From assembly GCA_965225625.1 (NCBI GenBank), contig CBDDBH010000002.1, forward strand, positions 7,156 to 71,155: a stretch of 64,000 nucleotides of DNA, given 5' to 3'. The notes beneath the pieces were generated by a model. It was not told where the DNA came from. It saw only the letters and a list, made by a program, of their open reading frames with translations, and made no database searches. The position numbers and the translations under genes are program-made. Source of the DNA: Gammaproteobacteria bacterium. GTDB lineage: Bacteria; Pseudomonadota; Gammaproteobacteria; JADZEE01. Position 1 is the first letter of the stretch. The number at the start of each line of letters is the position of its first letter. Below, piece by piece: positions 4,724 to 27,739 of this stretch.

Positions 4724-6202
4724 CTACGCCACGGCAGTTTTCCCCGGCGCCTCCGGCACATCGTAGCTCGACATCAGTTCGTCCACGTACCCATCGAACA
4801 TCGCCCAAGGTGCTTCGCGAAAACTGTGGTTGCGTATGATGAATGACGCACCGGCGTAAAACTTCTCATACTGTTGATGGCGGCCGGCGAACTCGCTGCC
4901 GACAATATCCCACACCAGTTTAAACAGCTTGATACGCTCCAACGCCGGTAACTGTGGCGTTTGCCAGTATTGTTCGAACTTCTCGCGCAAGGCGTCGTCG
5001 TGCATGACGCTGACGCTCGCGGGCATTTGAAACACGCCGCCGCCGGACAGTTCGCGTAAGGTATCAATAAGTTCAGAGTGCGTTTGCGTACACCAATGCA
5101 GGGCCGCATACATCATGCGGCGGTTGAAGGTCTTGAAACCCTGCGGCCAGTCCTCGGCGGCTTCGATCTGACCGCAAACCATACCGGCAAGCCCAGCTTC
5201 CAACGCCGCTAGCTTTCCCAGTGTTTCTCTAACCGCGGGAACTTTGTCGGCGCCGGTCGACTTCACAACCTTGCTCGCCAAACCGATGATCAACTTGAGC
5301 TTCGACAGGAAACGGACGTTGGATTGATGATTGCCGTAGCAATGCGATGGTGTCTGGATATAAATGTTACGGGACAAATCAGGATCGTCCATTACAAACA
5401 CCCGTTCCCACGGCACTTTGACGTTATCGCACATGACCATGCTGTCGGTCTCGTCGAAACGCCAACTCAGCGGACTATCGAATTCGTTGGCAGCGTTCAG
5501 TTCCAACGGTTGCCGCGACCACAACGTGAGTCCCGGGGTATTGACGGGTACCGCACAGGTCACCGCCTGCTTGGTCTGGCTGGATGCGAGCGGAATCAGA
5601 TTACCTATCCAGATCTCATTGGCGAGCACGCCGCCGGTTGCGAGCATTTTCATGCCGGAGACAACGATACCGTCGTCCTCTTCGTTCACCACCTGCAGAG
5701 ATGGAATAGGCAGATTCTGGCGTTCGTAATACTCGGGGTCACGCGCCGCCTGCGGCGGCAGAACGGCATACACCGGATAGACATCGTTCTTTTTCAAATG
5801 CGCGTAGTAGCTCAGCAGGTTGTCACTGAAATTCCGGTTGTCCGTGTTTAGTATTTCAGGCGCCATCGCCATGCCGGTGACGAAGCTTGCAACATGGTCA
5901 GGCGAGCGACCAAACATGCCGTAACTTACGTCGGCTATAACCTGATGAACCCGCATGCGTTTGCGCAGATCCTCGCGCGAACGCGCCTGCAGAAAGTACG
6001 CTGAATAGCGCTCGCCATCTTCCTCGAAGGTCAAGTCGTCACGGTGTTCAGGTGCTGCTTTTACGTCATACATGGAAGCGACGGTACGCGCCGCTTTCGC
6101 AAAGGCCGGATGCGTGGTTACGTCGTCGACCTTCTCATTACCGATATAAACAACCCGGCCGTCGCGCAATTGTTCCAAATGTTCACTGCCTGTTTTCAAC
6201 AT
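4724..6202 (-). CDS. 4-hydroxyphenylacetate 3-hydroxylase (HpaB/TftD/PvcC) family flavin-dependent monooxygenase, oxygenase component
   Basis: LRDGRVVYIGNEKVDDVTTHPAF, GRSPDHV, RFDETDS, GSEFAGRHQQYEKFYAG motifs; 492 aa. Confidence 0.9.
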   Translation of the reverse strand: MLKTGSEHLEQLRDGRVVYIGNEKVDDVTTHPAFAKAARTVASMYDVKAAPEHRDDLTFEEDGERYSAYFLQARSREDLRKRMRVHQVIADVSYGMFGRSPDHVASFVTGMAMAPEILNTDNRNFSDNLLSYYAHLKKNDVYPVYAVLPPQAARDPEYYERQNLPIPSLQVVNEEDDGIVVSGMKMLATGGVLANEIWIGNLIPLASSQTKQAVTCAVPVNTPGLTLWSRQPLELNAANEFDSPLSWRFDETDSMVMCDNVKVPWERVFVMDDPDLSRNIYIQTPSHCYGNHQSNVRFLSKLKLIIGLASKVVKSTGADKVPAVRETLGKLAALEAGLAGMVCGQIEAAEDWPQGFKTFNRRMMYAALHWCTQTHSELIDTLRELSGGGVFQMPASVSVMHDDALREKFEQYWQTPQLPALERIKLFKLVWDIVGSEFAGRHQQYEKFYAGASFIIRNHSFREAPWAMFDGYVDELMSSYDVPEAPGKTAVA

Positions 6203-6217: not shown

Positions 6218-6787
6218 TTAATTTGCTTCCTGCTCACGTTGATGTTCATGGAGCGAAATCTCGAGTTTCGCGCGCGCCGTCGAGCCGATAAAGCGCTCAA
6301 GCAGACGGGCCAGCAGCGTGAACTCTTCCCGCGTGAATTCGTCGAACAAAATATTGTTGATGCGCTGTCTAAACGGCGCCAGCTTCTCCAGCGCCGCCAT
6401 CCCTGCGCGCGTTAGCGTCACCAATACGCCACGGGCGTCAGCTGGGTTCGGCTGCTTAATCAACAAACCCTTGTCAATTAATTTGTTCGCTTCAACCGTC
6501 ACGTGCGATGAGGCGACGTGCAGGTACTGCGCCAATGTTTTGATCCCCACACCGCCAGCCTCCTGGTAGTGAGCTGTGGCGATCAGGATGAAGTACTGCG
6601 GTCCAGTGGTACCGATTTCCCGCCCAAATGCTTCACGCACCTCTTGAAAGCGCGTCGCGGTGACAAACAGCTCGTAAATTACTTCGCGGAAACGATCATC
6701 GCGTTTGTTACTAAGCAACTGAGAGCGTGTGACACTCAGTGGCGGTCGGTAGTCTACGTGTGCTTTTCTGCCGGCGCTTGTAACCAT
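6218..6787 (-). CDS. MarR family transcriptional regulator
   Basis: wHTH with LIDKGLLIKQPNPADARGVLVTLT; divergent from 6924. Confidence 0.85.
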   Translation of the reverse strand: MVTSAGRKAHVDYRPPLSVTRSQLLSNKRDDRFREVIYELFVTATRFQEVREAFGREIGTTGPQYFILIATAHYQEAGGVGIKTLAQYLHVASSHVTVEANKLIDKGLLIKQPNPADARGVLVTLTRAGMAALEKLAPFRQRINNILFDEFTREEFTLLARLLERFIGSTARAKLEISLHEHQREQEAN

Positions 6788-6923: not shown

Positions 6924-7556
6924 ATGCCCGATTTTCCCGTCGTTCGCGAAAAGATTGCGTTGCTCAACGTTGATATGCAGAACTGTTTCGTCGAAAACTC
7001 GCCGGTAGCCGCACCCGGTGGTCTCGAGGTGCTTGAGAAGATCAACAAATTGATCGGCGCGTGTCGTGAAGCTGGCATACAAATCATTCACGCCGAGCAT
7101 GTACTCAGGCCAGACGGCAGCAACATGGGCGTGCTGGGCGAAGTCGTACCGGTGACACGTGAGGGTTTGATAAATAAAGACAGAGATACCGCACAACTGC
7201 ATCCGGATCTGGCCGTCGCCGATGACGATATTATCCTCGATAAACCGCGTTTCGGTGCGTTTCATGGAACTGATCTCGAACTCATTCTGCGCAACAAAGG
7301 CATCGATACCATCATCGTGACCGGCATTGCCACCAACGTCTGCTGCGACACGACGGCGCGTCAGGCGAATATGGCCGATTTCCGTGTGTTTTTCCTGAGC
7401 GACGGTAATGCGACATTCCCAATCGGGGACGTTACAGCCGAAGAGATCCAGCGGGTGACGTGTGCAACCATGGGTGCATTGTTTGGTCAGGTGATCACTG
7501 TCGATGAAATGATCGACAAGATCCGCTCGGCAAGCGCGACCTCCAACGCAGCGTAG
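6924..7556 (+). CDS. Isochorismatase/cysteine hydrolase family amidohydrolase
   Basis: VDMQNCF, KPRFGAFHGTDL, GIATNVCCDTTAR catalytic Asp-Lys-Cys pattern. Confidence 0.9.
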   Translation: MPDFPVVREKIALLNVDMQNCFVENSPVAAPGGLEVLEKINKLIGACREAGIQIIHAEHVLRPDGSNMGVLGEVVPVTREGLINKDRDTAQLHPDLAVADDDIILDKPRFGAFHGTDLELILRNKGIDTIIVTGIATNVCCDTTARQANMADFRVFFLSDGNATFPIGDVTAEEIQRVTCATMGALFGQVITVDEMIDKIRSASATSNAA

Positions 7557-7578: not shown

Positions 7579-8340
7579 CTAGCCCGCGAGGAGCTTCCCG
7601 AATCCCGGGATCGCGTCACCGGCACCTACGCTCTGCAGGCTATGCCAAGCCACTGACGAGTTACTGGTAATGACCGGCTTGCCGAGTTCTGCCTCTAGCG
7701 GTTCGATCACATCGGTCGCGCGAATAGCAGCGCAACTGATGAAATAGGCATCGCCATCCTCGCGCCTGTTCGCGACGACGTAGCGCCGCCAATCTTCTGG
7801 TGACGGATCAAACATGCCGACACCACTGTTTATGCCCATCCCCGATTCATGCACTACCCGAAACCCAGCCCTTTCGAGGAATTCAACCTCACGCTGATTG
7901 ATGTGTGGCGGATACGGCGTCAGTAGCACGACACTGCTAGCGCCCAGCATCTTTAGCGCCGCGACGACCGCTTTGGAGGTGGTGGTCGCAGGCAGTCCGG
8001 TCGCCGCGCGGATCCGCTCGACAATTTCGTCGTCGGCCCCCTCATAGTATGTAGTTGCCGCAGTGCAATGAAACACAATCAAATCCACATTGGCTTGCGC
8101 CAATAGTGCTGCCCCCTCCTCTGCCCGATCAGCCATGCCGAGCACATCCGCCTCGTCGGAGCTGAGCAATTCAAGGCGGGTCGTGTGGAAGGTCACCCCT
8201 GGTGGGGCGATAGCATGGAACTGCGGTTCACTTGTCGTGTTCGTTGACGGGAGCAAAATGCCGATCTTTGCGCGGGTGCCGTATTGAATGGTCATTTGTG
8301 AGTTTGGATCCTTTTGGCGGGGAATCTCCACACTTTTCAT
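7579..8340 (-). CDS. Maleate cis-trans isomerase/Asp-Glu racemase family protein
   Basis: KIGILLPSTN, FHCTAAT, LLTPYP, ISCAAIR (two catalytic Cys), VITSNS; the start may instead be ATG at 8295. Confidence 0.85.
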   Translation of the reverse strand: MKSVEIPRQKDPNSQMTIQYGTRAKIGILLPSTNTTSEPQFHAIAPPGVTFHTTRLELLSSDEADVLGMADRAEEGAALLAQANVDLIVFHCTAATTYYEGADDEIVERIRAATGLPATTTSKAVVAALKMLGASSVVLLTPYPPHINQREVEFLERAGFRVVHESGMGINSGVGMFDPSPEDWRRYVVANRREDGDAYFISCAAIRATDVIEPLEAELGKPVITSNSSVAWHSLQSVGAGDAIPGFGKLLAG

Positions 8341-8356
8341 GGCGGAGCACCTATTT

Positions 8357-8592
8357 TATTACCCCTCATCCTGACCTGTTCTAGAACTCGGCTACGCCTC
8401 GTTAAGAACCCCCGGCCCTTGCGGGAGAGGGGTTGGCAGGTAATTGCTCCTCGACTTTGGCCTCCTGCGTCGTTCTACCTCGTCCATCCGTGGACTCGTC
8501 GGCTCTGGCTCCTGATTCGCTCTACCTCGTCCATCCCTGGACTCGTGCATTACCTGCATTTCCGCCATCCCTGGCGGTCGGGTGAGGGGTTT
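8357..8592. repeat. Composite cluster of REP-like hairpin repeats
   Basis: 26-bp near-identical direct repeats at 8474-8499 and 8521-8546; cccctcatcc...gggagagggg element; gccatccctggcggtcgggtgagggg arm matching the 46987 and 59237 palindromes. Confidence 0.75.
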
Positions 8593-8641
8593 TGAAATTC
8601 AGTAATCCCTCCGTAGTTTTACCGCGGATCTTTGCTTTACG

Positions 8642-10300
8642 TTACACAGCCGCCTTGTTCTGCGCTTCCATCGCTTCGGGGAACCACGGAGGAATGAAGT
8701 CGAACATTTTGTCGCCTAACCACGCCGGTGCAATATTTCGGCCCCAGTTGAGAATGATCTCGCGCACGCACTCGTCGGTAAAATCGATATTCGCCGCCGG
8801 GCCGCCCCAACCGTAAACCGTATGCGGTAACCAATCGGCCTTTTGTACCAGTTCGCACACGCGCGCCGCTCCCTCCTGCGCTGTCATCTCGCCACGCTCA
8901 ACGGCCGCTTGTGCATCTTCCAGTGTCACCAAAACTTCTTCTACCTTCTCCGTGTAGGGTGCGGATATATCGGCGCGCACTGACTCATCAATACGATCGA
9001 AAAAAGACGAATCGCCCATCTTGGTCTTGATAACGCCGCGCATGAAGTAGAGATCGCCCAACAATTTGCTGCCCAGCCACAAATTGAACCAGGCATTCCA
9101 CATGCTGAAGTCGCCCATGGAGTTATACGCGGACGCGACCATGCGGTCAGTAGCGTTAATCTGCTCGTGCTGCATCTCGTTGAGATGTTCGAAACGCGAC
9201 AGCGAGTAATCGTTGTCCTTCACTGCGTCTTCGATAGCTCGGGCGAGGTAATACAACGATTCGAACGAGTTGATCATGCCGCGCGACAACAGCGCGTCTA
9301 CAAAGCCATAGGCGTGGCTCATCATGACATAGCCAGGTCCGGCGCTCTGGCTCGATGAATATTGCAACTGCCCGGTACCTATCCACGGGCGCACAGGTTC
9401 GATGTTCTCGAAGTGATCCTTGACCGACGGGAACTTGGCTACGAAGTGCCAGAATTCTTCCTCCGCGGTCATGTCATCCGGTTTTGGATATTTCTTAATA
9501 TCCAGCGACAGGCCGATGCTTGCCAACTCGCTTTCGGACACTGCGGTATTGGTAAACGGAATTACCCACCACCAGCCGCCGTCAAAAACGTGGTGCAAGG
9601 TGCCATCGTTATAACCGTAGCGCTCGCTCGGGCGCACAACACCCTCGAGTTCGTCGTAGCTTTTCAAACCTTTGACATGCGCAAAAATGGTACGGCTGTG
9701 GGCGCGCATTTTTGTGGGATCGGTGCGCAAGCCCAACTTGTCCGCTACCGGGGAGCGAAACCCCGAGCCGTCAATGAGCAGCTTGGCTTTGAAGGTATCG
9801 CCGGATGCCGTGCTCAGCGTGACATTATTTTCCTGTAAATCGAAGTCGACGATATCGGTCTCGTCCATATAGTCCGCGCCGCATGACTGCGCCACCTTGA
9901 CCATATGATGGTCGACCTCGGAACGCATGAAATGGCTTTCGGAGCTGAACGGTACCTCGGGAGCAATTACTTGATGCGACTCGCTTTGATCCTGGCGTTG
10001 TCCTTCGCGGTGATACGCAAAGCTGATTGTGCGCTTTTGCCCGCAAACTTTGGACACCCGTTCATTGACTCGATCGACCGAGGTAATGTCGTTTATCTCT
10101 GGCAAATTGAAACGTTCGCCTAGCAGCAACATCCACATGGTCGATTGCGGCAACATGGCTTCGCCAATGGCAAATCGCGGGTGCTTGCCTTTTTCGATTA
10201 CCAGTATCCTCGCGCCCATGCGGGCAATGATGCCGGCGAGGATGGCGCCGGGTAACCCGGAACCCAGCATGACGATGTCAAATTCTTTCTGTGTTGCCAT
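8642..10300 (-). CDS. PrnC-like flavin-dependent halogenase
   Basis: GSGLPG FAD motif, HPRFAIGE, conserved Lys in GQKRT (K89), GTLHHVFDGGWWWVIPF (WxWxIP), GFVDALLSRG; colinear with PrnC as I recall it; GGAG RBS before ATG 10300. Confidence 0.85.
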   Translation of the reverse strand: MATQKEFDIVMLGSGLPGAILAGIIARMGARILVIEKGKHPRFAIGEAMLPQSTMWMLLLGERFNLPEINDITSVDRVNERVSKVCGQKRTISFAYHREGQRQDQSESHQVIAPEVPFSSESHFMRSEVDHHMVKVAQSCGADYMDETDIVDFDLQENNVTLSTASGDTFKAKLLIDGSGFRSPVADKLGLRTDPTKMRAHSRTIFAHVKGLKSYDELEGVVRPSERYGYNDGTLHHVFDGGWWWVIPFTNTAVSESELASIGLSLDIKKYPKPDDMTAEEEFWHFVAKFPSVKDHFENIEPVRPWIGTGQLQYSSSQSAGPGYVMMSHAYGFVDALLSRGMINSFESLYYLARAIEDAVKDNDYSLSRFEHLNEMQHEQINATDRMVASAYNSMGDFSMWNAWFNLWLGSKLLGDLYFMRGVIKTKMGDSSFFDRIDESVRADISAPYTEKVEEVLVTLEDAQAAVERGEMTAQEGAARVCELVQKADWLPHTVYGWGGPAANIDFTDECVREIILNWGRNIAPAWLGDKMFDFIPPWFPEAMEAQNKAAV

Positions 10301-10315
10301 TGCTGATACTCCCAC

Positions 10316-10924
10316 TTATAGGTCGACGTAACCCGTGTTCTCGAGCAAATGCGCCTCGATCGGGATCTTCAGGCTATCGTGAATAGTGTTGTACATCTTC
10401 CAAAAGCCGACAACGCCGGCGAGTTCGACGATCTGGGGCGGGCTTAAATGCTCGGCCAGTCGCTCACGGATCTCATCGGGTACGTTGGACGGATCCATCG
10501 ACGCTGCACCGACAAAATCGAAACACACGCGTTCGAACTCGTCTTCCGGCGGCGCCTCGCCGGTCAACATGGCGCTCAGATCCTCGTCCGCCATACCCCA
10601 ACCCTCGGCGCCCGGGCCTTGCGGCGCTTTCAGGATGCCGCAGTGGTGCGCGGTACAGTAGGTACAGCCGTTGATTTTGCTCGCAACCGCACCGAGCCGC
10701 CGTTTTAGGTTTTGATCCAGCGTCGAGCTTTTGTCTCGCATTATCCGGCTGTTGAGAGCGAATAAGGTCTCAGCGATTTCGGGCCGATGCATATAAAACT
10801 TCAAAGCATTGGGCAAAAAACCCATGCGTTCCTTATACGGCCCGACGATGGGTTCCAGCGATTCGGGAACGTCCTCCACATAGGGAATGAACGGTTGGTC
10901 TTCAACGGCGGCTGTTTCTGTCAT
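10316..10924 (-). CDS. AhpD/carboxymuconolactone decarboxylase family protein (Bmp8-like motif set)
   Basis: SKINGCTYCTAHH (C87, C90, H93) and C-terminal FWKMYN (N179). Confidence 0.8.
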   Translation of the reverse strand: MTETAAVEDQPFIPYVEDVPESLEPIVGPYKERMGFLPNALKFYMHRPEIAETLFALNSRIMRDKSSTLDQNLKRRLGAVASKINGCTYCTAHHCGILKAPQGPGAEGWGMADEDLSAMLTGEAPPEDEFERVCFDFVGAASMDPSNVPDEIRERLAEHLSPPQIVELAGVVGFWKMYNTIHDSLKIPIEAHLLENTGYVDL

Positions 10925-10939
10925 TGTTTTAACCTCGGC

Positions 10940-12346
10940 TTACAAATAATCCGCTAAGTTAACTTTGCCCCAATTCTTGGGCCAGGCACGTTTAAAATCC
11001 TTGGCGTCATACCGGCCTTTTATGGTCGCATCGATCCCGACTTTGGCGACGGTGCGCCACGGCGCGTGGCCCTCGACTGGTTGCGCCGACGGATCGTAGA
11101 GAGAACCGCGGGTATTGTTGACGACGATCATGTCACGCCCCGGATCGCAACGCGTGGCGATAGCATGATAGACGTCGGCGGGATCATCAATATCAGTATC
11201 GGGACTTATCGCGACCACCATCTTGGTATTGATCCAGGGTGCGCCCATGGTCTGCATGAGCGCGTCGTTGACGAACCCATCTCGCGGCGCCTCGACCTGG
11301 ATAATGCACGACAGCGCGGCGCCCCAGGGAGGAAAGCGAACGTCCGTGACCTTCAGTCCGATCTCGCTGATCCGGTTGTACAGTACAGCTTCATGACAAA
11401 GCCGGGGAAGTACAACGTGATCCGTGTTCGCGGTGGTCTGATGCCGCCGGTACACCGGCTTGCCGCTGCGCAGGGTCATCGCCGTGACGTGGACCTCTGG
11501 CAACCGTTGGGCCGGCGGCATCCAGTAAGTCGATGGGCCGACCGACGGGCCGTAATCGAACAAATCTTTCAGATTAACGATGCCCTCGACAACGATCTCG
11601 GCATGCGCAGGGACCGTGAGATCGATGGTCTCACAGCGCACCATTTCGATATCCATGTCCATGATGGTGCCAACCATTTCCATCTCGCCCCACAGATCCA
11701 TGTGTAGCCCGGAGAACTGCGCCATGATCTCGTAAGCCGGCGGCACGCCGAAGATCAGCGCCACCGGCATTTCAGTCTCGCCCATGTCGCGATACTTGCG
11801 CATGACCACGTGACTGTGGGGCGTGACGAAACTGATTAATCCTCGACGTGGTCCCGTGGGTGTCGTGCCGGCATTGCAGGAGTTGTAAAAACCAGTCTCC
11901 GGATCGCGAATGATGTTCATCGGCGACATATAGGTATCGGGTTCCAGATCGGAGTGAATGGACGCGGGTAATTTAGTCCAGTCCACCTCATCACCAATTA
12001 ACACGACATCTTTAACCGGCCCGGTATCCACGTCTACAAATCCGCGTGGGGCTTTACGCAGGCGTTGCGCCAGCGTTGGCAGGTAATCTTCCTCGCTGAC
12101 CCCAAGCGCGCGACACTGCGAGCGTCGATCTCTGACCATGATGTCGCAGACGCTGAAATCCGGGAACTCTTTGATATTGTCGAACACGATCGGCCCCGGG
12201 CTCTGCGATACGAGCGCGCCGATATCGTCGATATTTACCGGTTTGGTGATACGCGTGACAATGTCAGCGTTGGTTTCGAGATAGCCGCGCAGATCCGGAT
12301 CCAGCGTCGGTTTCCCCGATTCGATGTGTGCTTGTGCCGTTGCCAT
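10940..12346 (-). CDS. UbiD-family protein with degenerate active site
   Basis: DPETGFYN, PVALIFG, CETIDLTVPAHAEIVVEG, IDATIK; lacks the canonical Arg and the EGPFGE motif. Confidence 0.85.
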   Translation of the reverse strand: MATAQAHIESGKPTLDPDLRGYLETNADIVTRITKPVNIDDIGALVSQSPGPIVFDNIKEFPDFSVCDIMVRDRRSQCRALGVSEEDYLPTLAQRLRKAPRGFVDVDTGPVKDVVLIGDEVDWTKLPASIHSDLEPDTYMSPMNIIRDPETGFYNSCNAGTTPTGPRRGLISFVTPHSHVVMRKYRDMGETEMPVALIFGVPPAYEIMAQFSGLHMDLWGEMEMVGTIMDMDIEMVRCETIDLTVPAHAEIVVEGIVNLKDLFDYGPSVGPSTYWMPPAQRLPEVHVTAMTLRSGKPVYRRHQTTANTDHVVLPRLCHEAVLYNRISEIGLKVTDVRFPPWGAALSCIIQVEAPRDGFVNDALMQTMGAPWINTKMVVAISPDTDIDDPADVYHAIATRCDPGRDMIVVNNTRGSLYDPSAQPVEGHAPWRTVAKVGIDATIKGRYDAKDFKRAWPKNWGKVNLADYL

Positions 12347-12385
12347 GTTGGCCTCCAGATTTTTTTGGTTTGACTGAGTTCGCGC

Positions 12386-12694
12386 TTACGCTTCGATCGC
12401 TACCTGCACATCGTCACCTTCGATGCGCACTTTGTGGACCGGCACCGGCGCACCCATCGTCGTGGTGCCGGTCTCCAGAGAGAACTCCCAGCCGTGCAGG
12501 GGACAGATCACCTGGCCGTTATTGACCCATCCATCGGCCAGTGGCCCTCCCTGGTGCGGACACAGATTGTCGATGGCGCGCACCGCATCGCCGACGCGAA
12601 ACAACGCGACCTGCCGGCCATCGACCATTACACACTTGCCTTCGTCTTCCTCCAAATCACTGAGTGACGCCACAGTTTGGAATTCCATACTCAT
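12386..12694 (-). CDS. Rieske [2Fe-2S] ferredoxin
   Basis: CPHQGGPL...CPLHGWEF; ATGA overlap with the upstream UbiD stop. Confidence 0.9.
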   Translation of the reverse strand: MSMEFQTVASLSDLEEDEGKCVMVDGRQVALFRVGDAVRAIDNLCPHQGGPLADGWVNNGQVICPLHGWEFSLETGTTTMGAPVPVHKVRIEGDDVQVAIEA

Positions 12695-14208
12695 TCCTCC
12701 AACGCACCGCCACCCACCGTTGGTTTTTTGCCGGGTTTAGAAATGATCCCCTCCTCATGACTGACAATGCGCTCCATGGGTAGCTCCGCACCGTCGAGGT
12801 TATCGACAAAATCGCTCAATTCGACCTTGCCCTGGCCCATCGGCCAGGTGCGATGCAGTTCCCACCAATCCGTATCGTCTTTAGGCGGCAGCACGCTCGC
12901 ATCGATGATGGCCTTGCCATTTACACGGAACATACCTCCAGGCACGCGCTCCGCGCTGGGCATCAATGGTGATGCGCGTAACTCGGGAATAATCGTCGTA
13001 TCCGCGCCCCAGTTGGCGCGGATAGTCATCGCCCAAACTACATCGCGCGCATCATAGATGTTGACGTCGCGGTTTACCGCGACCGCCACCTGGCTCATGA
13101 ATCCGAGCGTGGTATTTTCCATGGTCAGCATTTTCATCAGCGCGTCACGTGCGTCGCCGCGTGCCCGTGGCGTCATCTGTACGATCCCGAATGCACAACC
13201 GCCCCAGGATGGAAAGTAGACATCGTGCACTTCAATCCCCATCTCGGTTAGCGCGGTGAACAAGCTGCCTTCGTTCGGCAGCATGGCCAAACGCTGGTGT
13301 TCGGTCCATACCGTCGATTGCACGTGCCGGTAAATCGGGTTCTTACGCATGGTGATCCGATCGACCCGGTATACCAGCGCCTTTTGTATTCCATCCCTGG
13401 ACATCGGCCCCGCGCAATAGGTACCCAGGTAATTACCAAAGGGTCCTTCGTTCTGCATCACCCCGGGCATGACAACGCCTTCCACAATGATTTCCGATGA
13501 CGCGGGCACGTCGATGTCGATGGTGTCGCACTTGACCAGTTCGGCTGGCTCGCCGAGGAAATTACCGGCGTAGTCGAGTTCTCCGCAATATGGGTGATGC
13601 ACGCTCAGTGAAGCAGTGACCTCCCAGGCGGGATGGGAACCGATAGACAGGGCCATGGGCATCGGCTCGCCGCGCGCGGCATATTTGCCGGCGATGCGTC
13701 CCACGTGCGGCGAAAAGATAAGAAATGGACAGTTCTTGCCATCGGTAATCTGGCTGCGCGGCCAGGTGGTGTTGTGCATCCCGGTATCCGGATCGACGAC
13801 GATACCCAGCGCGCTGCCCAGATAACGGCCACCGTCGAGTTCGGAATGATGCACGATCGGCAATCGTGACAGGTTGGCGTCATCGCCCTCCCATACAACT
13901 TCTTTTGCCGGCGAATCTTTGACGACGTTATGCGGCAACGGTCCCTTGTCGATGGCACTGGCAACGGCGCGCACGACATCCTCGCGATTTTCCACACCAA
14001 AGACAATGCGCTCCATATCGCGGTTATTGACCAGATTGGAAACCACGGTCCAATCTTCATAGCCCTTAACGTTCTCGAACAACATCGCCCTGTCGGACTG
14101 ATCGGCAAGCGCGGCCAGATTGGTTGACGGATCGACTTCCTTGGCCACGCGATACAAGCGGCCAGCCGCTTCAGCATCGTCGAGAAAACTGCGAAGACTT
14201 TTGGACAT
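12691..14208 (-). CDS. UbiD-family (prFMN-dependent) decarboxylase-like protein
   Basis: DGGRY, DPDTGMHNTTWPR, VPASSEIIVEG, EGPFGNYLGTY, IIDAS. Confidence 0.88.
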   Translation of the reverse strand: MSKSLRSFLDDAEAAGRLYRVAKEVDPSTNLAALADQSDRAMLFENVKGYEDWTVVSNLVNNRDMERIVFGVENREDVVRAVASAIDKGPLPHNVVKDSPAKEVVWEGDDANLSRLPIVHHSELDGGRYLGSALGIVVDPDTGMHNTTWPRSQITDGKNCPFLIFSPHVGRIAGKYAARGEPMPMALSIGSHPAWEVTASLSVHHPYCGELDYAGNFLGEPAELVKCDTIDIDVPASSEIIVEGVVMPGVMQNEGPFGNYLGTYCAGPMSRDGIQKALVYRVDRITMRKNPIYRHVQSTVWTEHQRLAMLPNEGSLFTALTEMGIEVHDVYFPSWGGCAFGIVQMTPRARGDARDALMKMLTMENTTLGFMSQVAVAVNRDVNIYDARDVVWAMTIRANWGADTTIIPELRASPLMPSAERVPGGMFRVNGKAIIDASVLPPKDDTDWWELHRTWPMGQGKVELSDFVDNLDGAELPMERIVSHEEGIISKPGKKPTVGGGALEE

Positions 14209-14276: not shown

Positions 14277-14948
14277 TTAGATTGCCCGTCCAATCGAACG
14301 GCCGAATGATGCGATATGCGAGCGGATCGCAGCCGATGCTTTGTCGCTGTCATGGGCGGCAATCGCTTCGAACACTGCACGGTGCTCACGTTGAACTCGC
14401 TGTAATTGTTTAATATCGCTGAGCGAAACAAACCAGAAACGCAGAGCACGGTCGTGCAGACGCGAAAGCAGATCGGCCAGCACACGATTGCGCGCGGCGG
14501 CCGCGATCGCCTGATGAAACTCGCGATCCAAATCCATTAAGCCCTCGTGATCCCGCTGCTCGGTCAGCGGTACTGCGCGCTCCAGGATCTCGCGCATGCC
14601 CTCTATATCCTGAGCTGTCGCGCGTTCAGCCGCGAGCGCTGCACACAAGCCCTCATTGGGCGCCCGCACCTCGATCAAATCTTTCACTTCGTCCAGGGTT
14701 ATCGGGTTGACGACAACCCCCTTGCGCGGCAACACCTGAACCATCCCTTCCATATCCAGACGTTTCAGCGCCTGGTGCACCGGCATACGGCCCAATCCTA
14801 ACTCGAGACAGATCGAGGACTCATTCAGGTACGCGCCCGGGTGATACTTGAGCGTTATGATGCGCCGCTTTATCGCTTCGTAGGCGCGCTCCTGCAAGGA
14901 CTCGACCACGGCCCCATTAGCGCGTGCCAGTTGCCTGTTTTCGCGCAC
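14277..14948 (-). CDS. GntR/FCD family transcriptional regulator
   Basis: LQERAYEAIKRRII...LGLGRMPVHQALKRL HTH; FCD domain DREFHQAI; GTG start at 14948 chosen to avoid overlap with the cupin gene. Confidence 0.88.
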   Translation of the reverse strand: MRENRQLARANGAVVESLQERAYEAIKRRIITLKYHPGAYLNESSICLELGLGRMPVHQALKRLDMEGMVQVLPRKGVVVNPITLDEVKDLIEVRAPNEGLCAALAAERATAQDIEGMREILERAVPLTEQRDHEGLMDLDREFHQAIAAAARNRVLADLLSRLHDRALRFWFVSLSDIKQLQRVQREHRAVFEAIAAHDSDKASAAIRSHIASFGRSIGRAI

Positions 14949-14953
14949 GGGTA

Positions 14954-15346
14954 TCAATCGTCGCGCGGATCGTAATAATGCATTTCGAACATTACGCAAC
15001 CGTTTTCTGATTTGAACGGGCCGTGATGAGCGCCCGGCGGACGACAGGCGTAGGTCGGCGCGAAAAACTGCTCGCCGCCCTCGCCGTTCTCATCGTTGCC
15101 GACGATCAAATCCCCTTCGATCAGGTAGACCTCTTCCCAGTGATTGTGCACGAACGGAGCTTTGGAATAGGCACCTGGATCCAATCTCATTAGCCGTGAA
15201 CGGCTGCCGATCTTTCGCTTCTCGTCGATGTCACTGGTGAGGATCTTGTGCTGGAAGCTTGACGGATAACCTGGTGGGGTGACCCAGTCCGTGTCCGGAT
15301 CCAATCTCAGGAATTCCAAGTGCGGTTTACGTTTTTCATCAGCCAT
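14954..15346 (-). CDS. Cupin-domain protein (ChrR-like cupin)
   Basis: HNHWEEVYLIEGDL and YACRPPGAHHGPF cupin motifs. Confidence 0.8.
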   Translation of the reverse strand: MADEKRKPHLEFLRLDPDTDWVTPPGYPSSFQHKILTSDIDEKRKIGSRSRLMRLDPGAYSKAPFVHNHWEEVYLIEGDLIVGNDENGEGGEQFFAPTYACRPPGAHHGPFKSENGCVMFEMHYYDPRDD

Positions 15347-15362: not shown

Positions 15363-16058
15363 TTATTCGGCTACAGGCAGCTCTCGGATCGAATAGTCAT
15401 GAGTCAGTTTGCGTCCCAATATGGGATCTTCGAGTTCCATCGTGAACGCCGCTGCAGGTCGTACCTTACCCTGAACCGCCAGTGTCCCACAGAACATGGC
15501 AGTACCGGGCGCGAGACCGCCATCGGCTTCGTCGTACAGGTTCATGAGTTCACTCGGCAATCGCAAGCCGCTAATCGAACCTTCTTGATAGATCACGCGG
15601 TCACCATCGATTTGTGCATAGGAACGCAGTACCAGATCGTCCCAATGTGCAACGACATCGTCGTACGACCACAGCGTATTGGAAATCGGCTTCGCACAGG
15701 CCTGCTTGGCCACGGTCACACTGTAAGTTTCTGCCTCACGATCGGTATGATCCGACCCCACGGCAACCCACAGTACATCGCCGATCTGCAATAACACTGC
15801 TTCGGCTTCACCACTGGACGCCGCGCCGGCGACGTCAATCGATTGTGCAGTCGTCAGCAGGCTTGCCGCGACCCGGTAAAACGTCGGCGTCGATTTCGGC
15901 CGTGGAATACCGAGCTCCTCGAGTTCGCGGATATGCGCCTCCATCGCCGCGGCGTCACGACCAGTCCAGCCGGCAATGACCAGGTCATCGATCGACGCAG
16001 TCAGCTCCGTTTCCAGCCCCTGGTGGATTGCGCTAAATGCGAGATTGTTGGCTGCCAT
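15363..16058 (-). CDS. DUF2848 family protein
   Basis: IAGWTGRD...HIRELEELG...P.FY, SSGEAE, GSDHTDR, KQACAKP pattern. Confidence 0.8.
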   Translation of the reverse strand: MAANNLAFSAIHQGLETELTASIDDLVIAGWTGRDAAAMEAHIRELEELGIPRPKSTPTFYRVAASLLTTAQSIDVAGAASSGEAEAVLLQIGDVLWVAVGSDHTDREAETYSVTVAKQACAKPISNTLWSYDDVVAHWDDLVLRSYAQIDGDRVIYQEGSISGLRLPSELMNLYDEADGGLAPGTAMFCGTLAVQGKVRPAAAFTMELEDPILGRKLTHDYSIRELPVAE

Positions 16059-16066: not shown

Positions 16067-17215
16067 TCAGAAAATATTCGAACGTTCGTACTGCACCGGC
16101 CAGCGTACATTATCCGCCTTCAAAGCTTTGGCGCTGCGCAAAGGCCACACCGGATCGGCGAGCAGCGTGCGGCCGAGCACGACGAGATCGGCCTGTCCGT
16201 TGGCGATAATCGATTCCGCCAGATCCGGACTGTTGATGAGACCAATGGCGCCTGTCGCCAATCCAGTTTCGGCTTTAATCCGTTGCGCGAACGCTACCTG
16301 ATAACCCGGATGGATTGGGATCTGCTGGCGTGGATCGTTACCGCCGGAGGAACAATCGATCAGATCCACATCGCCGCGTTCACGCAATCGTTGGCACAGC
16401 CAAAGACTATCCTCTAACGACCAGCCGCCTTCGACCCAATCCGTTACCGACAAGCGCAAAAACAGGGGCAGCTCAGCGGGCCACTCGTCGCGGATCGCAT
16501 CCAGCGTTTGCAGCAGCAGCCGTGCGCGATTGTCGATAGAGCCGCCGTACTCGTCAGTACGCTGATTGCTCAGCGGCGAGAGGAATTGGTGGAACAAATA
16601 CCCATGGGCTGCATGGACCTCCAGGATCCGAAATCCAGCTTCGCGCGCACGCCGCACCGCGGCTCGATAATCTTCGATGGACTGCGCAATGACCTCGGCA
16701 TCCATGGCTGTAGGCGTTGGCCAGCCTCGCGCATAGGCGAGCACACTTGGTGCAATCGGCAGCCAACCGCCCGCATCCACGGAAATCGGTTCGGTTCCCT
16801 CCCACGGACGGCCCACGGAAGCCTTGCGGCCGGCGTGGCCGAGTTGGATCGCCGGTACTGCGTTCTGAGTTTCAATGAATCTCACTATGCGGGCCAGCGC
16901 ATCACGTTGTTCGTCGTTCCACAATCCCAGGCAATGTCGGGTAATGCGGCCACGGGGCTCGGTATGCACTGCTTCCGTGGTGACGATGCCGGCGCCGCCG
17001 GCAGCGCGCGCACCCAGGTGCACGAAGTGCCAGTCATTGACTAGACCATCTTCGGCTGAGTATTGGCACATCGGCGACAGCATGATGCGATTCTTAATGA
17101 TCACCGAACGTATCGTCAGCGGGCGGAACAGATGAGGCTCCGGATCGCGACGCAATATCCGCCGGTCGTTCTCACCGGTCGTACGCGAATCGATTTGTAG
17201 CTCCGCGCGCGTCAA
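16067..17215 (-). CDS. NADH:flavin oxidoreductase (old yellow enzyme, YqjM/XenA type)
   Basis: SPMCQYSA, QLGHAGRKAS, HAAHGYLFHQFLSP, NQRTDEYGGS. Confidence 0.92.
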   Translation of the reverse strand: MTRAELQIDSRTTGENDRRILRRDPEPHLFRPLTIRSVIIKNRIMLSPMCQYSAEDGLVNDWHFVHLGARAAGGAGIVTTEAVHTEPRGRITRHCLGLWNDEQRDALARIVRFIETQNAVPAIQLGHAGRKASVGRPWEGTEPISVDAGGWLPIAPSVLAYARGWPTPTAMDAEVIAQSIEDYRAAVRRAREAGFRILEVHAAHGYLFHQFLSPLSNQRTDEYGGSIDNRARLLLQTLDAIRDEWPAELPLFLRLSVTDWVEGGWSLEDSLWLCQRLRERGDVDLIDCSSGGNDPRQQIPIHPGYQVAFAQRIKAETGLATGAIGLINSPDLAESIIANGQADLVVLGRTLLADPVWPLRSAKALKADNVRWPVQYERSNIF

Positions 17216-17544
17216 AAAATAGACTCCTTTTGCATCGCCTGGTGAAACACCTCGCCCGCGAATGCGGGGAAGCGCGCAAAGTCCTCCCGGGCCGCGGCTC
17301 GGGCGGGCGAACGTAGTGCCGCGTCCAGGGCGGTAGAGGATTCAAACTGCATTTGTGCGAGTAGGCACACCCCACCAGGATTAACAGGATAAGGGTCGCT
17401 GCTGTCCTGCGGCGTGTGTAGAGTGAGCGCCTCTATGCCAGGGAATTGCTTGAGAATTGCAGCGTGCTCTTGCCGGTAATAGTCGGTAAAACGTCGGGGA
17501 TTTTCGGCGGCACCCTGATAGCGCACGAAATACGATACTGACAT
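17212..17544 (-). CDS. EthD family protein
   Basis: 110 aa, FTDYYRQEHAAILKQFPG...AREDFARF; 4-bp overlap with the OYE gene. Confidence 0.75.
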   Translation of the reverse strand: MSVSYFVRYQGAAENPRRFTDYYRQEHAAILKQFPGIEALTLHTPQDSSDPYPVNPGGVCLLAQMQFESSTALDAALRSPARAAAREDFARFPAFAGEVFHQAMQKESIF

Positions 17545-21136: not shown

Positions 21137-22654
21137 TCAGGTTAATCCGAGCTTCTCGGCGAGCCCGATGCGCTGCATTTTACCGGTGGGCCCTTTCGGG
21201 ATCTCGTCGAGAAACACAATCTGCCGTGGTACTTTGAAATCCGCGAGCCGCTGTGCGGCAAAATCTCGGATCTCACGCTCGCTTGCCTGCTGGCCCTCGG
21301 CCAATACCACCGCTGCGGCGACATCCTCGCCGAGTTTGTCGTGCGGCTTGCCGAAGGTGACAACCTGTTGCACGGCGGGATGATCCATCAACACATCGTC
21401 GACTTCGCGCGGAGATATTTTTTCACCGCCGCGATTGATGATCTCTTTCAGGCGACCCGTTATACGCAGATAACCCTCCTCATCCATCACTCCCTGATCA
21501 CCCGTGCGGAACCAGCCGTTGGTAAACGCCTCGGCATTTGCCTTGGGATTACTTTCGTAGCCGGCCGTTACATTTGCGCCGCGAATAACAATCTCGCCGA
21601 CCTGGCCGCCCGCCAGTAGTTCGCCGGACGCGTCCATCACGCTGACCTCGGGGCCAGCCGCCACGCCTACAGTACCCGGCTTGCGCTCTCGCGGCGGCAA
21701 CGGATTACTGGTCGTCTGGTGGGCCGCCTCGGTCATTGCATAGGCCTCGATCACTGGGGCACCGAACGCTTGCTCCAGCGCGACCATCACCTGACTCGGG
21801 AGCGACGCCGAACTCGATCGAATAAAACGTAACTGCTTACGTTCGATTACATCGCGGCTGCGCTCCGCGCGGGCGAGGATCGCTTGATGCATCGTTGGTA
21901 CCGCCGTGTACCAGCTCGGCGATGAATCCTCCAGCCAGCCGAAGAACTTCAGCGCGTTGAAACCCGGACAGCAGTAGGTGCTACCCCCGGCTCCCAAGGA
22001 CGCCAGTATGGCCGCTATTAAACCGTGAATGTGGAATAGCGGCATCATGTTCAGACAGCAATCCTCAGCGCTCAGCGCCAGTGTCGTTTGAATATTCTGC
22101 GCGGAGGCCGTTACATTACTATGCATGAGGGGCACGATCTTAGGACGTGAAGTCGTGCCGGACGTGTGTAACACCAAGGCAATGTCATCGGCTTGCGCAA
22201 GACCGGTGCTGACAGGCGTGCCCCCGGTCGTGTTGACGAACTCGAACAGTCCCGCAGGCTGTTGTGGTTGATGCGTAATCTCCAGCACGGGTATATCGAG
22301 CTTCGCTGCCGCGGCGCGCGCCGGTGTTTCATCACCCTGCGCTACGATCAACGCCTTGGCCTTTAGATCAGATATATAAAATTCGAACTCATCCTGCCGG
22401 TAGGCGGGGTTCAAAGGCGCCGTCGTTGCTGCACACGCGATCGCAGTGAAGGCACTCGCCATCTCTGGTCCGTTCGGCAATACAATCGCGACGAGATCGC
22501 CTCGGCCAATACCCAATGCGTTCAGCGCGGTGACCGTTGCGGTGATGTGCGCGCGTAGCCCGGCATGGTCTAGAACGCTGCGTTCGGGCGCTGCCAACGC
22601 GGGCGCGCTTGCTGTAGCCGCACCCATGAGGTCAAAAATAGTGTGTCCAGCCAT
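21137..22654 (-). CDS. Acyl-CoA synthetase, oxalate-CoA ligase type
   Basis: HTSGTTSRPKIVPL, MPLFHIHGL, WYTAVPTMHQ, FIRSSSASL, EAYAMTE, PKGPTGK. Confidence 0.85.
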   Translation of the reverse strand: MAGHTIFDLMGAATASAPALAAPERSVLDHAGLRAHITATVTALNALGIGRGDLVAIVLPNGPEMASAFTAIACAATTAPLNPAYRQDEFEFYISDLKAKALIVAQGDETPARAAAAKLDIPVLEITHQPQQPAGLFEFVNTTGGTPVSTGLAQADDIALVLHTSGTTSRPKIVPLMHSNVTASAQNIQTTLALSAEDCCLNMMPLFHIHGLIAAILASLGAGGSTYCCPGFNALKFFGWLEDSSPSWYTAVPTMHQAILARAERSRDVIERKQLRFIRSSSASLPSQVMVALEQAFGAPVIEAYAMTEAAHQTTSNPLPPRERKPGTVGVAAGPEVSVMDASGELLAGGQVGEIVIRGANVTAGYESNPKANAEAFTNGWFRTGDQGVMDEEGYLRITGRLKEIINRGGEKISPREVDDVLMDHPAVQQVVTFGKPHDKLGEDVAAAVVLAEGQQASEREIRDFAAQRLADFKVPRQIVFLDEIPKGPTGKMQRIGLAEKLGLT

Positions 22655-25150: not shown

Positions 25151-26578
25151 ATGAGTTCCAGTAAACGACTAAGCGACGCGATGGACGACCACGCGCTGGA
25201 GCGGGTCCCCGATAGCGAACGTAAGACCTGGCTGACCATTGCCTGGAACAGCGTGGGTTTAGTGACGACGCTGGTTATCCTGTTCCTCGGTGCACTCGTG
25301 TGCTTCGTCGCCGGGGTAAAGCTGGCTTTGTATGCCGGCATCACTGTGCTGCTTGTCGGCAGTTCTCTCGCCTGGGCAATTGCCCACATCGCTTACACCA
25401 CAGGCTGCTCCAGCACCGTGCTCACACGCCAGTACGGTCTTGGAATACGCGGCTCCGCGCTTGCATCAACCGTCTTCGGCTGCATGATTATCAGTTTCCT
25501 CGCGATCGAGAATGCGCTGCTGTATCGCGGCTTCATCTTTTTCTTCGAAGCACAGGACACCGTCACCCTACGCATCATCATTTATGGATTGTTCACCGTC
25601 GCCTGGATATCGCTGACGGCATTCGGTTTCCAGCTGGTGGCGCGCGTATCGTCGATCATGGTTATCGGATTCCTGCTGGTGTTGGCCTGGATCGTCGTCG
25701 ACATCGTGCGGCAATCGGATTACGAGCTTGCCCAACTCGTATTGTTTCCGACGCAATTGCCGGACTCAGCGTTAGACGGTATGGGGATAAAATCCGACTT
25801 CGACAAATATGTCTTCAGCCTCAATATCCTGATCGGCCCGGCCGGTGCGATCGCGCTCAACAACGCGGATTTCGGCCGCTATGGACGATCTACCGCGGAT
25901 GCCGGGATCGCCGGGACACTCGCGGTACTGATGCAATCCTGCATCGTTATGGTTATTGGTGGAATTCTCATGTTTGCCGGTGCCAGTACCGTGATGGAGT
26001 ATTTTGTAAACGTGAAAGGTTACTCGCCCGAGGCTGCCGAACGCGCGGTGCTGCAAAGCCCCGATACGATTGCCGCCACCTTCATGGTATTCGGCGGGGC
26101 GCTCGGTTTCGCCTTGATGCTGCTCGCGCAATGCAAAGCGCAAGTGCTCAATACCTACAGCTCCTCGCTGTCTTTCACCAATCTATTCGACGCGCTATTC
26201 GATTGGAGGCCGGGGCGTTTCTTTTTCGTAATCCTCGTGAATATTATTTCGCTGCTCATGTTGTATGGACATATCCTCGAATTCGTCGAAGCTTGGATTA
26301 CATTCCTGGGGGTCTTTCTGACTTGTCTCGCAGGTGTGGTAATCGCGGATTTCTATATTGTCGCTCCACGAATACGGGCTTTCGCGGACACCAGCCAGGA
26401 GGCGATCAATGTCGCCGGGGTCGTAACCGTAATCGGCAGCACATTGCTTGCCCATTACGTCTTCACCGCGTTCATACCGATCGAATTCGTTGCCTCGCTA
26501 GGCGGTGCACTCGTTTTGTATCCACTGCTACGCCTCACTATTCTGCGTCCGCAGGTCGCCACTGGCGCGAGCGCGTAA
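25151..26578 (+). CDS. Purine-cytosine permease (NCS1/CodB-like)
   Basis: DDHALERVP N-terminus, about 12 TM segments, ADFGRY, NTYSSSLS. Confidence 0.85.
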   Translation: MSSSKRLSDAMDDHALERVPDSERKTWLTIAWNSVGLVTTLVILFLGALVCFVAGVKLALYAGITVLLVGSSLAWAIAHIAYTTGCSSTVLTRQYGLGIRGSALASTVFGCMIISFLAIENALLYRGFIFFFEAQDTVTLRIIIYGLFTVAWISLTAFGFQLVARVSSIMVIGFLLVLAWIVVDIVRQSDYELAQLVLFPTQLPDSALDGMGIKSDFDKYVFSLNILIGPAGAIALNNADFGRYGRSTADAGIAGTLAVLMQSCIVMVIGGILMFAGASTVMEYFVNVKGYSPEAAERAVLQSPDTIAATFMVFGGALGFALMLLAQCKAQVLNTYSSSLSFTNLFDALFDWRPGRFFFVILVNIISLLMLYGHILEFVEAWITFLGVFLTCLAGVVIADFYIVAPRIRAFADTSQEAINVAGVVTVIGSTLLAHYVFTAFIPIEFVASLGGALVLYPLLRLTILRPQVATGASA

Positions 26579-26593: not shown

Positions 26594-27739
26594 TTGAATC
26601 CCTCTGCGCCGCAACCGGCCGAATTGCTCGAACAACTTCGTCATTGGGCGCAAACCCCGTTTGCGCAAAGCGTAAGCATTCCGTCGCAGGTATATACCTC
26701 GAAGGCGTTTCTCGACCTGGAGATCGAGCATATTTTTAAACGCCAATGGATCTGTGCAGGCCGGGTGGACGAGGTCTCGAAACCGGGCGATTACTTCAGT
26801 TTCGACATCGCGGAGTATCCCATCATCGTGCTGCGTGATGAAGCCAACGCTATCAGGGCGATGTCTAATGTGTGTCGACACCGTGCCACCCTTCTGGTTT
26901 CCGGTGCAGGTAACTGCCGCGCGTTCACCTGTCCCTACCATGCGTGGACTTACAACTTAGACGGCGGGTTGCGAACGGCACCTTACATGGATAGGACCGC
27001 GAGTTTCGATAAGACGACTCTGGCACTTCCGCAATATCGGGTCGAAGTCTGGCAGGGCTTTATCTACGTGAATTTGGACGAGAATGCGCCACCCTTTGCA
27101 CGCAACGTCGCCGGATTGGATGCGCTTTTCGAACGACACAGTGTCGCCGATCTGCAGTTCGCATTTCGTGGCAGCATGGAAGTCGCCTGCAACTGGAAGG
27201 TTCAGGTCGAAAATTTTTGTGAAAGTTATCATGTGTTCCAGGTTCACCCGCAGACGATCGAACCTGTCATGACCACTGCCTCAGTGAAAGTGCAGTCCGG
27301 CGGAACCGGCTTCAATCATCACACCCAGAGACCACCTGAGGGCTTTGTCGATCCTGGCCCGCAAGTTTATCCGTATCTTCAGGGCGACGACCGCTCAACG
27401 TTTAACCTCATGTGTGTGTACCCGTCGCACGCAGTGGCGCTTGGTGCGGAATTCATCAGTTGGTTATCCGTCCACCCACGCGGAACGGATCGCTGTGTGG
27501 TTCACTACGCTGGCGCACTACCCGGCGAACAACCCGATGGTAAAGTCAACGCCGCCCGGGCCGAAGAGACCCGGGCGTACATGCTTGAATTCATGGCCGA
27601 AGACATACTCAGGATCGAGGCCGTTCAAAGAGGTTTCGTCGCCTACGCCGGCGGCTCACCTTATTGCGAAATGGAAAAGACCAACTGGGAATTCGGCCGC
27701 TACATCGTTAATCAAGTTTGTGCCGACCGTGCCATTTGA
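26594..27739 (+). CDS. Rieske non-heme iron oxygenase alpha subunit (choline/carnitine monooxygenase-like)
   Basis: CRHR...CPYHAW Rieske site; NWKVQVENFCESYHVFQVH; EDILRIEAVQRG. Confidence 0.88.
   Translation: MNPSAPQPAELLEQLRHWAQTPFAQSVSIPSQVYTSKAFLDLEIEHIFKRQWICAGRVDEVSKPGDYFSFDIAEYPIIVLRDEANAIRAMSNVCRHRATLLVSGAGNCRAFTCPYHAWTYNLDGGLRTAPYMDRTASFDKTTLALPQYRVEVWQGFIYVNLDENAPPFARNVAGLDALFERHSVADLQFAFRGSMEVACNWKVQVENFCESYHVFQVHPQTIEPVMTTASVKVQSGGTGFNHHTQRPPEGFVDPGPQVYPYLQGDDRSTFNLMCVYPSHAVALGAEFISWLSVHPRGTDRCVVHYAGALPGEQPDGKVNAARAEETRAYMLEFMAEDILRIEAVQRGFVAYAGGSPYCEMEKTNWEFGRYIVNQVCADRAI

Follow-up and report, generated by a model that had tools for sequence, protein, structure and literature searches.

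A halogenase-type flavoprotein at the end of a conserved UbiD/Rieske operon in a gammaproteobacterial genome

Nearly all flavin-dependent halogenases known so far are tailoring enzymes from natural-product clusters. In a 64,000-nucleotide stretch of DNA from a Gammaproteobacteria bacterium (GenBank assembly GCA_965225625.1, contig CBDDBH010000002.1, positions 7,156 to 71,155 of the forward strand; hereafter the window), we found an intact halogenase gene (8642–10300, minus strand) that is conserved in a rare operon of redox and (de)carboxylase enzymes, and it is this setting that is new. The analysis below demonstrates a halogenase fold and motif set, purifying selection, conserved synteny and the existence of a partner gene, from which point actual halogenation, the substrate class and the direction of the pathway are what we infer. 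Our preferred reading, to which we give an even chance, is a two-component halogenase that depends on reduced flavin adenine dinucleotide (FADH2) and acts on a small aromatic compound in free form, and that belongs as an accessory module to a UbiD/Rieske pathway with a catabolic look.

The open reading frame (ORF) listing contains a 557-residue frame at 8642–10315 on the minus strand, within which the ATG at 10300 is the likely start, giving a protein of 552 residues. A GGGAG sequence lies 8 nt 5′ of this ATG, the stop codon of the preceding gene falls 15 nt before it, and homologues share their first residue with the product of this start. Its motifs, phmmer matches in the PDB and an AlphaFold2 model identify the product as a flavin-dependent halogenase homologue. 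An earlier note, made from the sequence alone, had read in it a FAD motif, a catalytic-lysine position (GQKR) and the WxWxIP motif, and all three readings hold. The GxGxxG dinucleotide-binding motif is GSGLPG (residues 13–18), K89 within GQKR aligns with the catalytic residues Lys98 of CtcP and Lys87 of PltM (PMC12400496), and WxWxIP is present as W243-W-W245-V-I247-P248 within GGWWWVIPF (from residue 241). The motif that lines the tunnel is FVDALLSRG at 333–341 (F333, A336, S339, G341). In a family alignment of 73 sequences, K89, W243, W245, I247, P248 and G341 are invariant, and the window halogenase keeps every one of the 33 family-invariant columns, K89 and WxWxIP included. Pfam assigns Trp_halogenase (4e-14) and FAD_binding_3, and no NCBIfam equivalog is reached. 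Comparison with a 94%-identical relative (locus L015; L-numbers label comparison loci and C-numbers the contigs of the window's own genome) gave nonsynonymous and synonymous divergences (dN, dS) of 0.032 and 1.13 (dN/dS 0.03), and the gene is therefore under strong purifying selection.

The closest sequences of known structure are CtcP (6e-108) and PltM (1e-78), followed at a distance by PltA (1e-23). The AlphaFold2 model, computed from the 73-sequence alignment, has a mean predicted local distance difference test (pLDDT) score of 94.7 and a predicted template modelling (pTM) score of 0.93. Foldseek superposes it on CtcP with template modelling (TM) scores of 0.91–0.95 over ∼547 columns, among them the C-terminal helical hairpin described as a lid in CtcP (PMC12400496), and on PltM with scores of 0.82–0.92; all other halogenases score 0.5–0.67. 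The model thus supports placing the protein, as a halogenase-type flavoprotein with an intact catalytic set, in the free-substrate CtcP/PltM/PrnC structural class, whose members have about 500–570 residues and a helical C-terminal region that PltA-type and Trp halogenases lack.

The earlier note had called the enzyme PrnC-type, which is right for the structural class and wrong in the strict sense. For this comparison a true PrnC was taken from a Burkholderia pyrrocinia replicon (L016), recognised by its prnA-prnB-prnC-prnD order. By BLASTP the window halogenase is 33.4% identical to PrnC (545 residues), with CtcP (34.2%) and PltM (32.1%) equally distant. The phylogeny with characterised halogenases that the note had proposed was run by a quick method as an unrooted tree of 122 sequences, with Shimodaira–Hasegawa-like approximate likelihood ratio test (SH-aLRT) support. 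The window halogenase and seven relatives form a group with 100% support, inside an 88-row group that holds Acidobacteria, cyanobacteria, haloarchaea, Chloroflexi and others. CtcP, PltM and PrnC fall together in a separate, mostly actinobacterial group of 34 rows, divided from the first by a branch with 99% SH-aLRT support. Strict PrnC membership was rejected on this split, on the 33% identity and on the lack of a prn context: the gene is the only PF04820 member of the genome, and none of its annotated neighbours resembles PrnB or PrnD, which bears out the note's statement that prnA, prnB and prnD are missing.

The Fx.Px.Sx.G motif lines the tunnel from the flavin to the site of halogenation (PMC8407142). 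CtcP, PltM and PrnC have proline at the position of Ala336, and the note had taken the alanine for a variant halide-site motif with a possibly altered halide preference. The alanine itself is real, and it is not unusual. Among 121 sequences (the 120 closest homologues and the window protein) the position is alanine in 55, proline in 56 and glycine in 1, and the rows of the 73-sequence alignment that lie outside the subfamily divide into 39 with proline and 26 with alanine. We know of no alanine-bearing member of the clade that has been assayed. A polymorphism this common in the clade, at roughly 50:50, gives no basis for predicting an altered halide preference; the idea of a special halide-site variant was rejected, which removes a false lead.

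Pocket residues were mapped by alignment to those reported for CtcP (PMC12400496), so that I59, Q61, K98, F101, R349, S421 and W456 of CtcP correspond to L50, Q52, K89, I92, R340, K412 and S446 of the window protein. The mapped residues are identical in all members of the subfamily except the most distant one, and the lysine at 412 occurs in seven of the eight subfamily members and in 8 of the 65 other sequences. From the sequence, R340 and K412 could possibly, as a weak indication, suit a small anionic substrate such as an aromatic acid or a phenol. A small anionic aromatic acid would fit a UbiD-linked pathway.

By analogy with the family, free FADH2 would bind the protein and react with O2 to a C4a-hydroperoxide, which a halide would attack to give hypohalous acid (HOX). 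The HOX would then reach K89 through the tunnel lined by W243, W245, I247, P248 and F333–G341. The fold might also serve another reaction in vivo, the protein being a hydroxylase, some other flavin-peroxide oxidant or an oxidative dehalogenase that works, in the degradation of an aromatic compound, in parallel with the HpaB-type oxygenase encoded nearby. Hydroxylating halogenase-like flavoproteins exist, the NCBIfam models for two of them, QhpG and LodB, match weakly, the genomic context looks catabolic, and no characterised enzyme stands on the window's side of the tree. Set against this, K89 and the WxWxIP block, which shields the flavin from the substrate, are invariant under strong purifying selection, the tunnel motif is kept apart from the common proline/alanine polymorphism, and the QhpG and LodB scores fall far under the cut-off (42 against 240 bits). 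We consider such a non-halogenating role unlikely. As far as the sequence can tell, this is probably a bona fide, active halogenase of a free substrate that takes FADH2 from outside.

The note had described the gene as stand-alone, a description that does not survive inspection of the locus. The halogenase gene is the last of ten genes on the minus strand, in which adjacent genes either overlap or lie no more than 68 bp apart. The array opens with an EthD-domain protein (17212–17544), identified by Pfam and found in related clusters, and continues with an Old Yellow Enzyme (OYE) ene-reductase of the YqjM/XenA class (16067–17215), whose PDB matches are too generic to name a substrate. A DUF2848 protein (15363–16058) follows, which accompanies the halogenase in full clusters and for which we found no relative in the PDB and no paper in the literature search. 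Domain matches then identify a Cupin_7 protein (14954–15346), while a GntR/FCD regulator (14277–14999) keeps its position within the array in L104 and L107. The UbiD-family (de)carboxylase (12691–14208) and a small Rieske [2Fe-2S] ferredoxin (12386–12694), both assigned by domain match, share a 4-bp overlap; this UbiD is of a rare type whose gene the Rieske gene always follows. A UbiD-like paralogue without the UbiD_N domain (10940–12346) is present with the halogenase in every full cluster. The ninth gene, 15 bp 5′ of the halogenase, encodes a CMD/AhpD-like ‘peroxidase-related’ protein with a CxxC motif (10316–10924). Its best PDB match is 2pfx (2e-10) and its second-best, near full length, is the debrominase Bmp8 (6ohi, 3e-8); orthologues 54–94% identical occur in L005, L008, L015, L104, L106, L107 and L108.

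On the 3′ side of the halogenase is a 301-bp intergenic spacer (8341–8641) with two direct copies of a 38-nt repeat, 47 nt apart. The unit has 78 BLAST matches in the genome and belongs to a repetitive extragenic palindromic (REP)-like intergenic repeat family, often arranged in tandem arrays with a period of ∼48 nt (for example C32:386048–386490). The repeat-bearing spacer fits the 3′ end of the operon. A terminator and promoter scan of the spacer found nothing, nor did an Rfam scan of the whole window.

Nearly the whole array is repeated, gene by gene, in other metagenomic loci, where the halogenase is 49–73% identical. L104 (halogenase 73%), which was found through its UbiD, has the identical ten-gene order including GntR, with an HpaB gene directly after the halogenase. 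The 94% relative in L015 lies on a contig that ends upstream in a 178-residue partial gene and retains CMD, halogenase, isochorismatase, MarR, HpaB and MFS genes. L005 and L008 (58%) have the same gene set with UbiX, tautomerase and amidase genes, a flavin reductase gene immediately before the halogenase and a XylR-type activator. In L007 and L108 (58–59%), XylR and a DUF1329-halogenase unit, followed in L108 by a flavin reductase, precede DUF3179 and an array in the order UbiD-Rieske-cupin-DUF2848-UbiD-like-EthD-OYE-CMD. The most divergent, L011 (49%), combines DUF3179-ferredoxin reductase-halogenase with XylR and UbiD-Rieske-BNR-MMPL-DUF1302. Linkage with UbiD, Rieske, CMD, OYE and the other genes is kept in three halogenase sub-lineages.

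The distribution of these genes is narrow. A homologue more than 50% identical occurs in only two of 185,579 species genomes, both metagenome-assembled genomes (MAGs) labelled Gammaproteobacteria, and only seven protein clusters among 5.8 billion proteins are at least 49% identical; none of six genomes of the same family carries the halogenase. The UbiD type is found in one of 400 genomes of the class, the window's own, and only 45 protein clusters among the 5.8 billion proteins match it at E ≤ 1e-100. A metagenome scan seeded with the UbiD alignment yielded 5 short loci and no more, too little to judge co-occurrence.

An orphan halogenase with a new free substrate and unrelated neighbours, as the earlier note had it, would agree with a window free of prn, nonribosomal peptide synthetase (NRPS) and polyketide synthase (PKS) genes and with the two homologues of 71–73% identity that do not have this cluster around them. 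The 15-bp spacing to the upstream gene and the one-strand array speak against an orphan, and the same neighbours surround halogenases of 49–94% identity in L015, L104, L005, L007, L008, L108 and L011. When all the cluster proteins of the window were compared by tblastn with 78 halogenase loci of the wider clade (≤46% identity), no cluster gene was found in any of them. This leaves the orphan view with very little probability.

Five further contexts (L104 to L108) were read from the UbiD side, and three of them, L105, L106 and L107, contain no halogenase. L105 has UbiD-Rieske only, L106 has CMD, EthD, OYE, cupin, ferredoxin reductase, UbiD and Rieske, and L107 has EthD, UbiD, Rieske, CMD, OYE, cupin and GntR. 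The core of the cluster is therefore UbiD and Rieske, mostly with CMD, OYE, EthD and cupin, and the halogenase is an accessory module. The halogenase, the UbiD-like paralogue and DUF2848 occur together in five full clusters and are jointly absent or decayed in L105, L106 and L107. In the loci read, the halogenase is also accompanied by either a flavin reductase or an HpaB-type oxygenase. CMD adjoins the halogenase in the window, L015, L104, L005 and L008, yet CMD occurs without a halogenase in L106 and L107, and the halogenase without CMD in L011. The two genes do not co-vary, which weakens the idea of an obligate Bmp2/Bmp8-style editing pair.

In the clusters of relatives we found XylR_N/V4R sigma-54 activators. 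The strict −24/−12 pattern (TGGCA-N7-TTGC) occurs three times in L011 (7042, 7388 and 14448), against ∼0.17 expected, at 60–250 bp 5′ of the DUF3179-reductase-halogenase operon, the UbiD operon and the DUF1329 gene, and a box at L108:2118 stands upstream of DUF1329-halogenase-reductase. Arranged around one XylR-type activator, the boxes of L011 and L108 mark out a regulon shared by the halogenase and the UbiD-Rieske genes. The same pattern gave no boxes in the window, L104, L005 or L008. Uptake-type genes (DUF1302, DUF1329, MMPL and BNR) are interleaved with the cluster in relatives, scaffold-building enzymes are missing from every cluster version, and the operon of the window is surrounded by HpaB-like, amidohydrolase, maleate-isomerase-like and ring-hydroxylating oxygenase genes. 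Because of this lack, and because relatives combine XylR/sigma-54 control with uptake genes for hydrophobic substrates, a biosynthetic pathway looks less likely than a catabolic or transforming one.

In a biosynthetic reading, the operon would make a small halogenated aromatic metabolite (a signal, an antibiotic or a quinone-like cofactor), with the halogenase as a tailoring enzyme that some versions do without. Its presence in some versions of the cluster and absence from others is the classic pattern of a tailoring enzyme, all characterised relatives are biosynthetic (PMC8407142), and PltM makes small halogenated signals from phloroglucinol (PMC12400496). A 71% homologue (L001/L017) also stands beside a polyunsaturated fatty acid (PUFA)-type PKS. 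This locus (L001/L017:1–11677, from another Gammaproteobacteria MAG) encodes a PfaA/PfaD-like PKS, GST, Sulfotransfer_4 and a 208-residue protein without a Pfam match, and represents a different, possibly biosynthetic, use of the same halogenase subfamily. The lack of a scaffold-forming enzyme in every cluster version, the sigma-54 activators with their boxes and the uptake genes of the relatives, and the amidohydrolase, maleate-isomerase-like, HpaB-like and ring-hydroxylating oxygenase genes around the window operon all oppose a biosynthetic role, which we regard as a genuine but minor possibility.

Several observations weigh against the preferred reading of an accessory halogenase in a catabolic-looking pathway. 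To our knowledge the 88-row group has no characterised member, and the characterised enzymes are only 32–34% identical to the window protein. The halogenase is not obligatory to the pathway, as the UbiD-Rieske loci L105, L106 and L107 show, and the independent lineages are few, three with the halogenase and three without. Close homologues (71–73%) occur in other settings, beside the PUFA-type PKS in L001 and without the cluster in L004 (73%). It is not obvious what a halogenase would do in a degradative pathway, and the literature searched offers no precedent for a flavin-dependent halogenase with UbiD/Rieske, in a catabolic setting or in haloarchaea. The argument from K412 is an alignment-based one. 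Finally, CtcP itself has no robust activity in vitro (PMC12400496).

A two-component halogenase needs a source of reduced flavin, and the note had held that the enzyme requires external FADH2 and has no flavin reductase nearby. Locally this is so: no PF01613 flavin reductase is encoded on the contig of the window. Genome-wide it is not, as two PF01613 genes are present on other contigs, and an HpaB-type FADH2-dependent enzyme is encoded 2.4 kb from the halogenase. One of the two reductases (C33:266743–267714) is a 323-residue fusion of Flavin_Reduct with a MarR-type winged helix-turn-helix (wHTH) domain, an architecture shared with L005 and L108; the joining of a flavin reductase to a DNA-binding domain is unusual in itself. 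The C33 protein shares 48% identity, over its full length, with the L005 reductase encoded beside the halogenase, and 46–53% with the reductases in L008, L108 and L018; orthologues of the fusion adjoin the halogenase in L005, L008, L108 and L018. At C33:264874–267714 its gene is overlapped by a TetR gene, from which a ferredoxin-NAD reductase gene diverges, and this divergent neighbour is 46% identical to the one that adjoins the halogenase in L011. Both redox partners that relatives keep in the cluster are thus encoded together, and unlinked, in the window's genome. Reduced flavin for the halogenase would most likely come from the C33 fusion, which could also supply the nearby HpaB-type oxygenase, and the C33 reductases would in this way serve the halogenase operon.

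Within the preferred reading, the halogenase would be an accessory enzyme of a rare pathway that is built around UbiD and Rieske and handles a small (hetero)aromatic compound. In a more specific version, which we regard as rather improbable, halogenation would be cryptic: a halogen would be placed transiently on a recalcitrant small (hetero)aromatic ring and then removed, with net hydroxylation or activation of the ring. Removal could be oxidative, by the HpaB-type oxygenase as in chlorophenol monooxygenases, or reductive, by thiol proteins such as the Bmp8-like CMD protein or the T4-deiodinase-like protein in L018, all under GntR or XylR/sigma-54 control and coupled to the unusual UbiD-Rieske enzyme. 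Aryl-halide handling is hinted at by the HpaB-like, CMD and deiodinase-like proteins, none of which is decisive. The HpaB-like protein is closer to true HpaB (2e-66) than to the chlorophenol monooxygenases (1e-54 to 1e-48). The T4-deiodinase-family protein of L018 (9319–10023, from a Gammaproteobacteria MAG) has cysteine in its catalytic GSxTC, and its gene immediately follows that of the flavin reductase at this halogenase locus. A 35% homologue of it in the window's genome (C3:22010–22915) adjoins a Rieske oxygenase, 8 kb from the second flavin reductase.

A NicX-like gene (a faint match to 2,5-dihydroxypyridine dioxygenase) flanks the cluster in L104 (2573–3880), and in L107 the flanking genes encode the three subunits of a xanthine-dehydrogenase-type molybdenum hydroxylase together with MoxR/VWA proteins (8752–12466). 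Together they suggest an N-heterocyclic substrate.

The remaining genes of the window lie on either side of the operon. Beyond the spacer is an arylmalonate-decarboxylase/maleate-isomerase-like gene (7579–8340, minus strand), followed by a gene for an isochorismatase-family cysteine amidohydrolase (6924–7556, plus strand) that is kept in L015; the PDB matches of both proteins are too generic to assign a substrate. The 7579–8340 gene is missing at this position in L015, where the isochorismatase gene directly follows the halogenase, and the difference is a recent insertion or deletion beside the repeat-bearing spacer. A MarR regulator gene (6218–6787, minus strand), also kept in L015, lies upstream of the gene for the HpaB-family FADH2-dependent aromatic oxygenase (4724–6202, minus strand), the counterpart of which immediately follows the halogenase in L104 and lies near it in L015. 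Further out, 956–2956 encodes a 666-residue protein with many tetratricopeptide repeats (TPR) and a C-terminal sulfotransferase domain. This is the largest ORF of the window, which therefore holds no NRPS or PKS megasynthase, as the note had said. The note's negative statements about the context are mostly right; as to the carrier proteins and adenylation domains that it did not see, an AMP-binding acyl-CoA-ligase-like gene is located at 21137–22654, 11 kb from the halogenase, and the ORFs beside it match no carrier-protein family in Pfam scans, PP-binding not having been searched as such. A 475-residue ORF without a Pfam match (25151–26578) is directly upstream of the gene for a Rieske ring-hydroxylating oxygenase alpha subunit (26594–27739). 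Elsewhere in the genome, two UbiD paralogues (C30:302191–303600 and C33:464681–466090), 34–35% identical to the UbiD of the operon, have one in-frame stop each, and are possible pseudogenes or assembly errors.

In relatives, sigma-54 activators of the phenol/toluene type drive the operon, which lies next to genes for the uptake of hydrophobic compounds. If the protein halogenates in such a setting, enzymatic halogenation would have a wider range of physiological roles. It would also offer a way into the chemistry of the neighbouring Rieske-partnered UbiD enzyme. Now that a likely cognate reductase has been named, with small aromatic acids or phenols as a plausible class of substrate, the idea of a biocatalyst becomes directly testable.

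Among known systems, CtcP of the chlortetracycline pathway (PDB IDs: 7XGB and 7V0B) is the best match in both sequence and structure, over the whole chain including the lid. The catalytic lysine, WxWxIP, the SRG of the tunnel motif and the pocket residues Q52 and R340 are identical, whereas F101, S421 and W456 of the CtcP pocket are replaced by I92, K412 and S446. CtcP further differs in its type II PKS cluster, which supplies a dedicated reductase (CtcQ), in the proline of its tunnel motif, and in its 34% identity across the 99% split of the tree. PrnC, the monodechloroaminopyrrolnitrin halogenase, is a pyrrole halogenase of similar length that likewise acts on a free substrate, but it has proline in the tunnel motif, lies on the opposite side of the split and comes with prnA, prnB and prnD, which the window does not have. 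Bmp2 of the marine bmp cluster is a carrier-protein-dependent halogenase of another clade with a TM score of 0.54 to the model, and the likeness of the CMD protein 5′ of the halogenase to the debrominase Bmp8 (6OHI) includes a CxxC motif that is generic to AhpD-like proteins. PltM, the phloroglucinol halogenase of Pseudomonas protegens (PDB ID: 6BZA), shares the fold of the first ∼500 residues; it lacks the C-terminal lid, is a member of the pyoluteorin cluster and is 32% identical to the window halogenase, but with a small free phenol as its substrate, the use of chloride, bromide and iodide, and an external reductase, it provides a good functional analogy.

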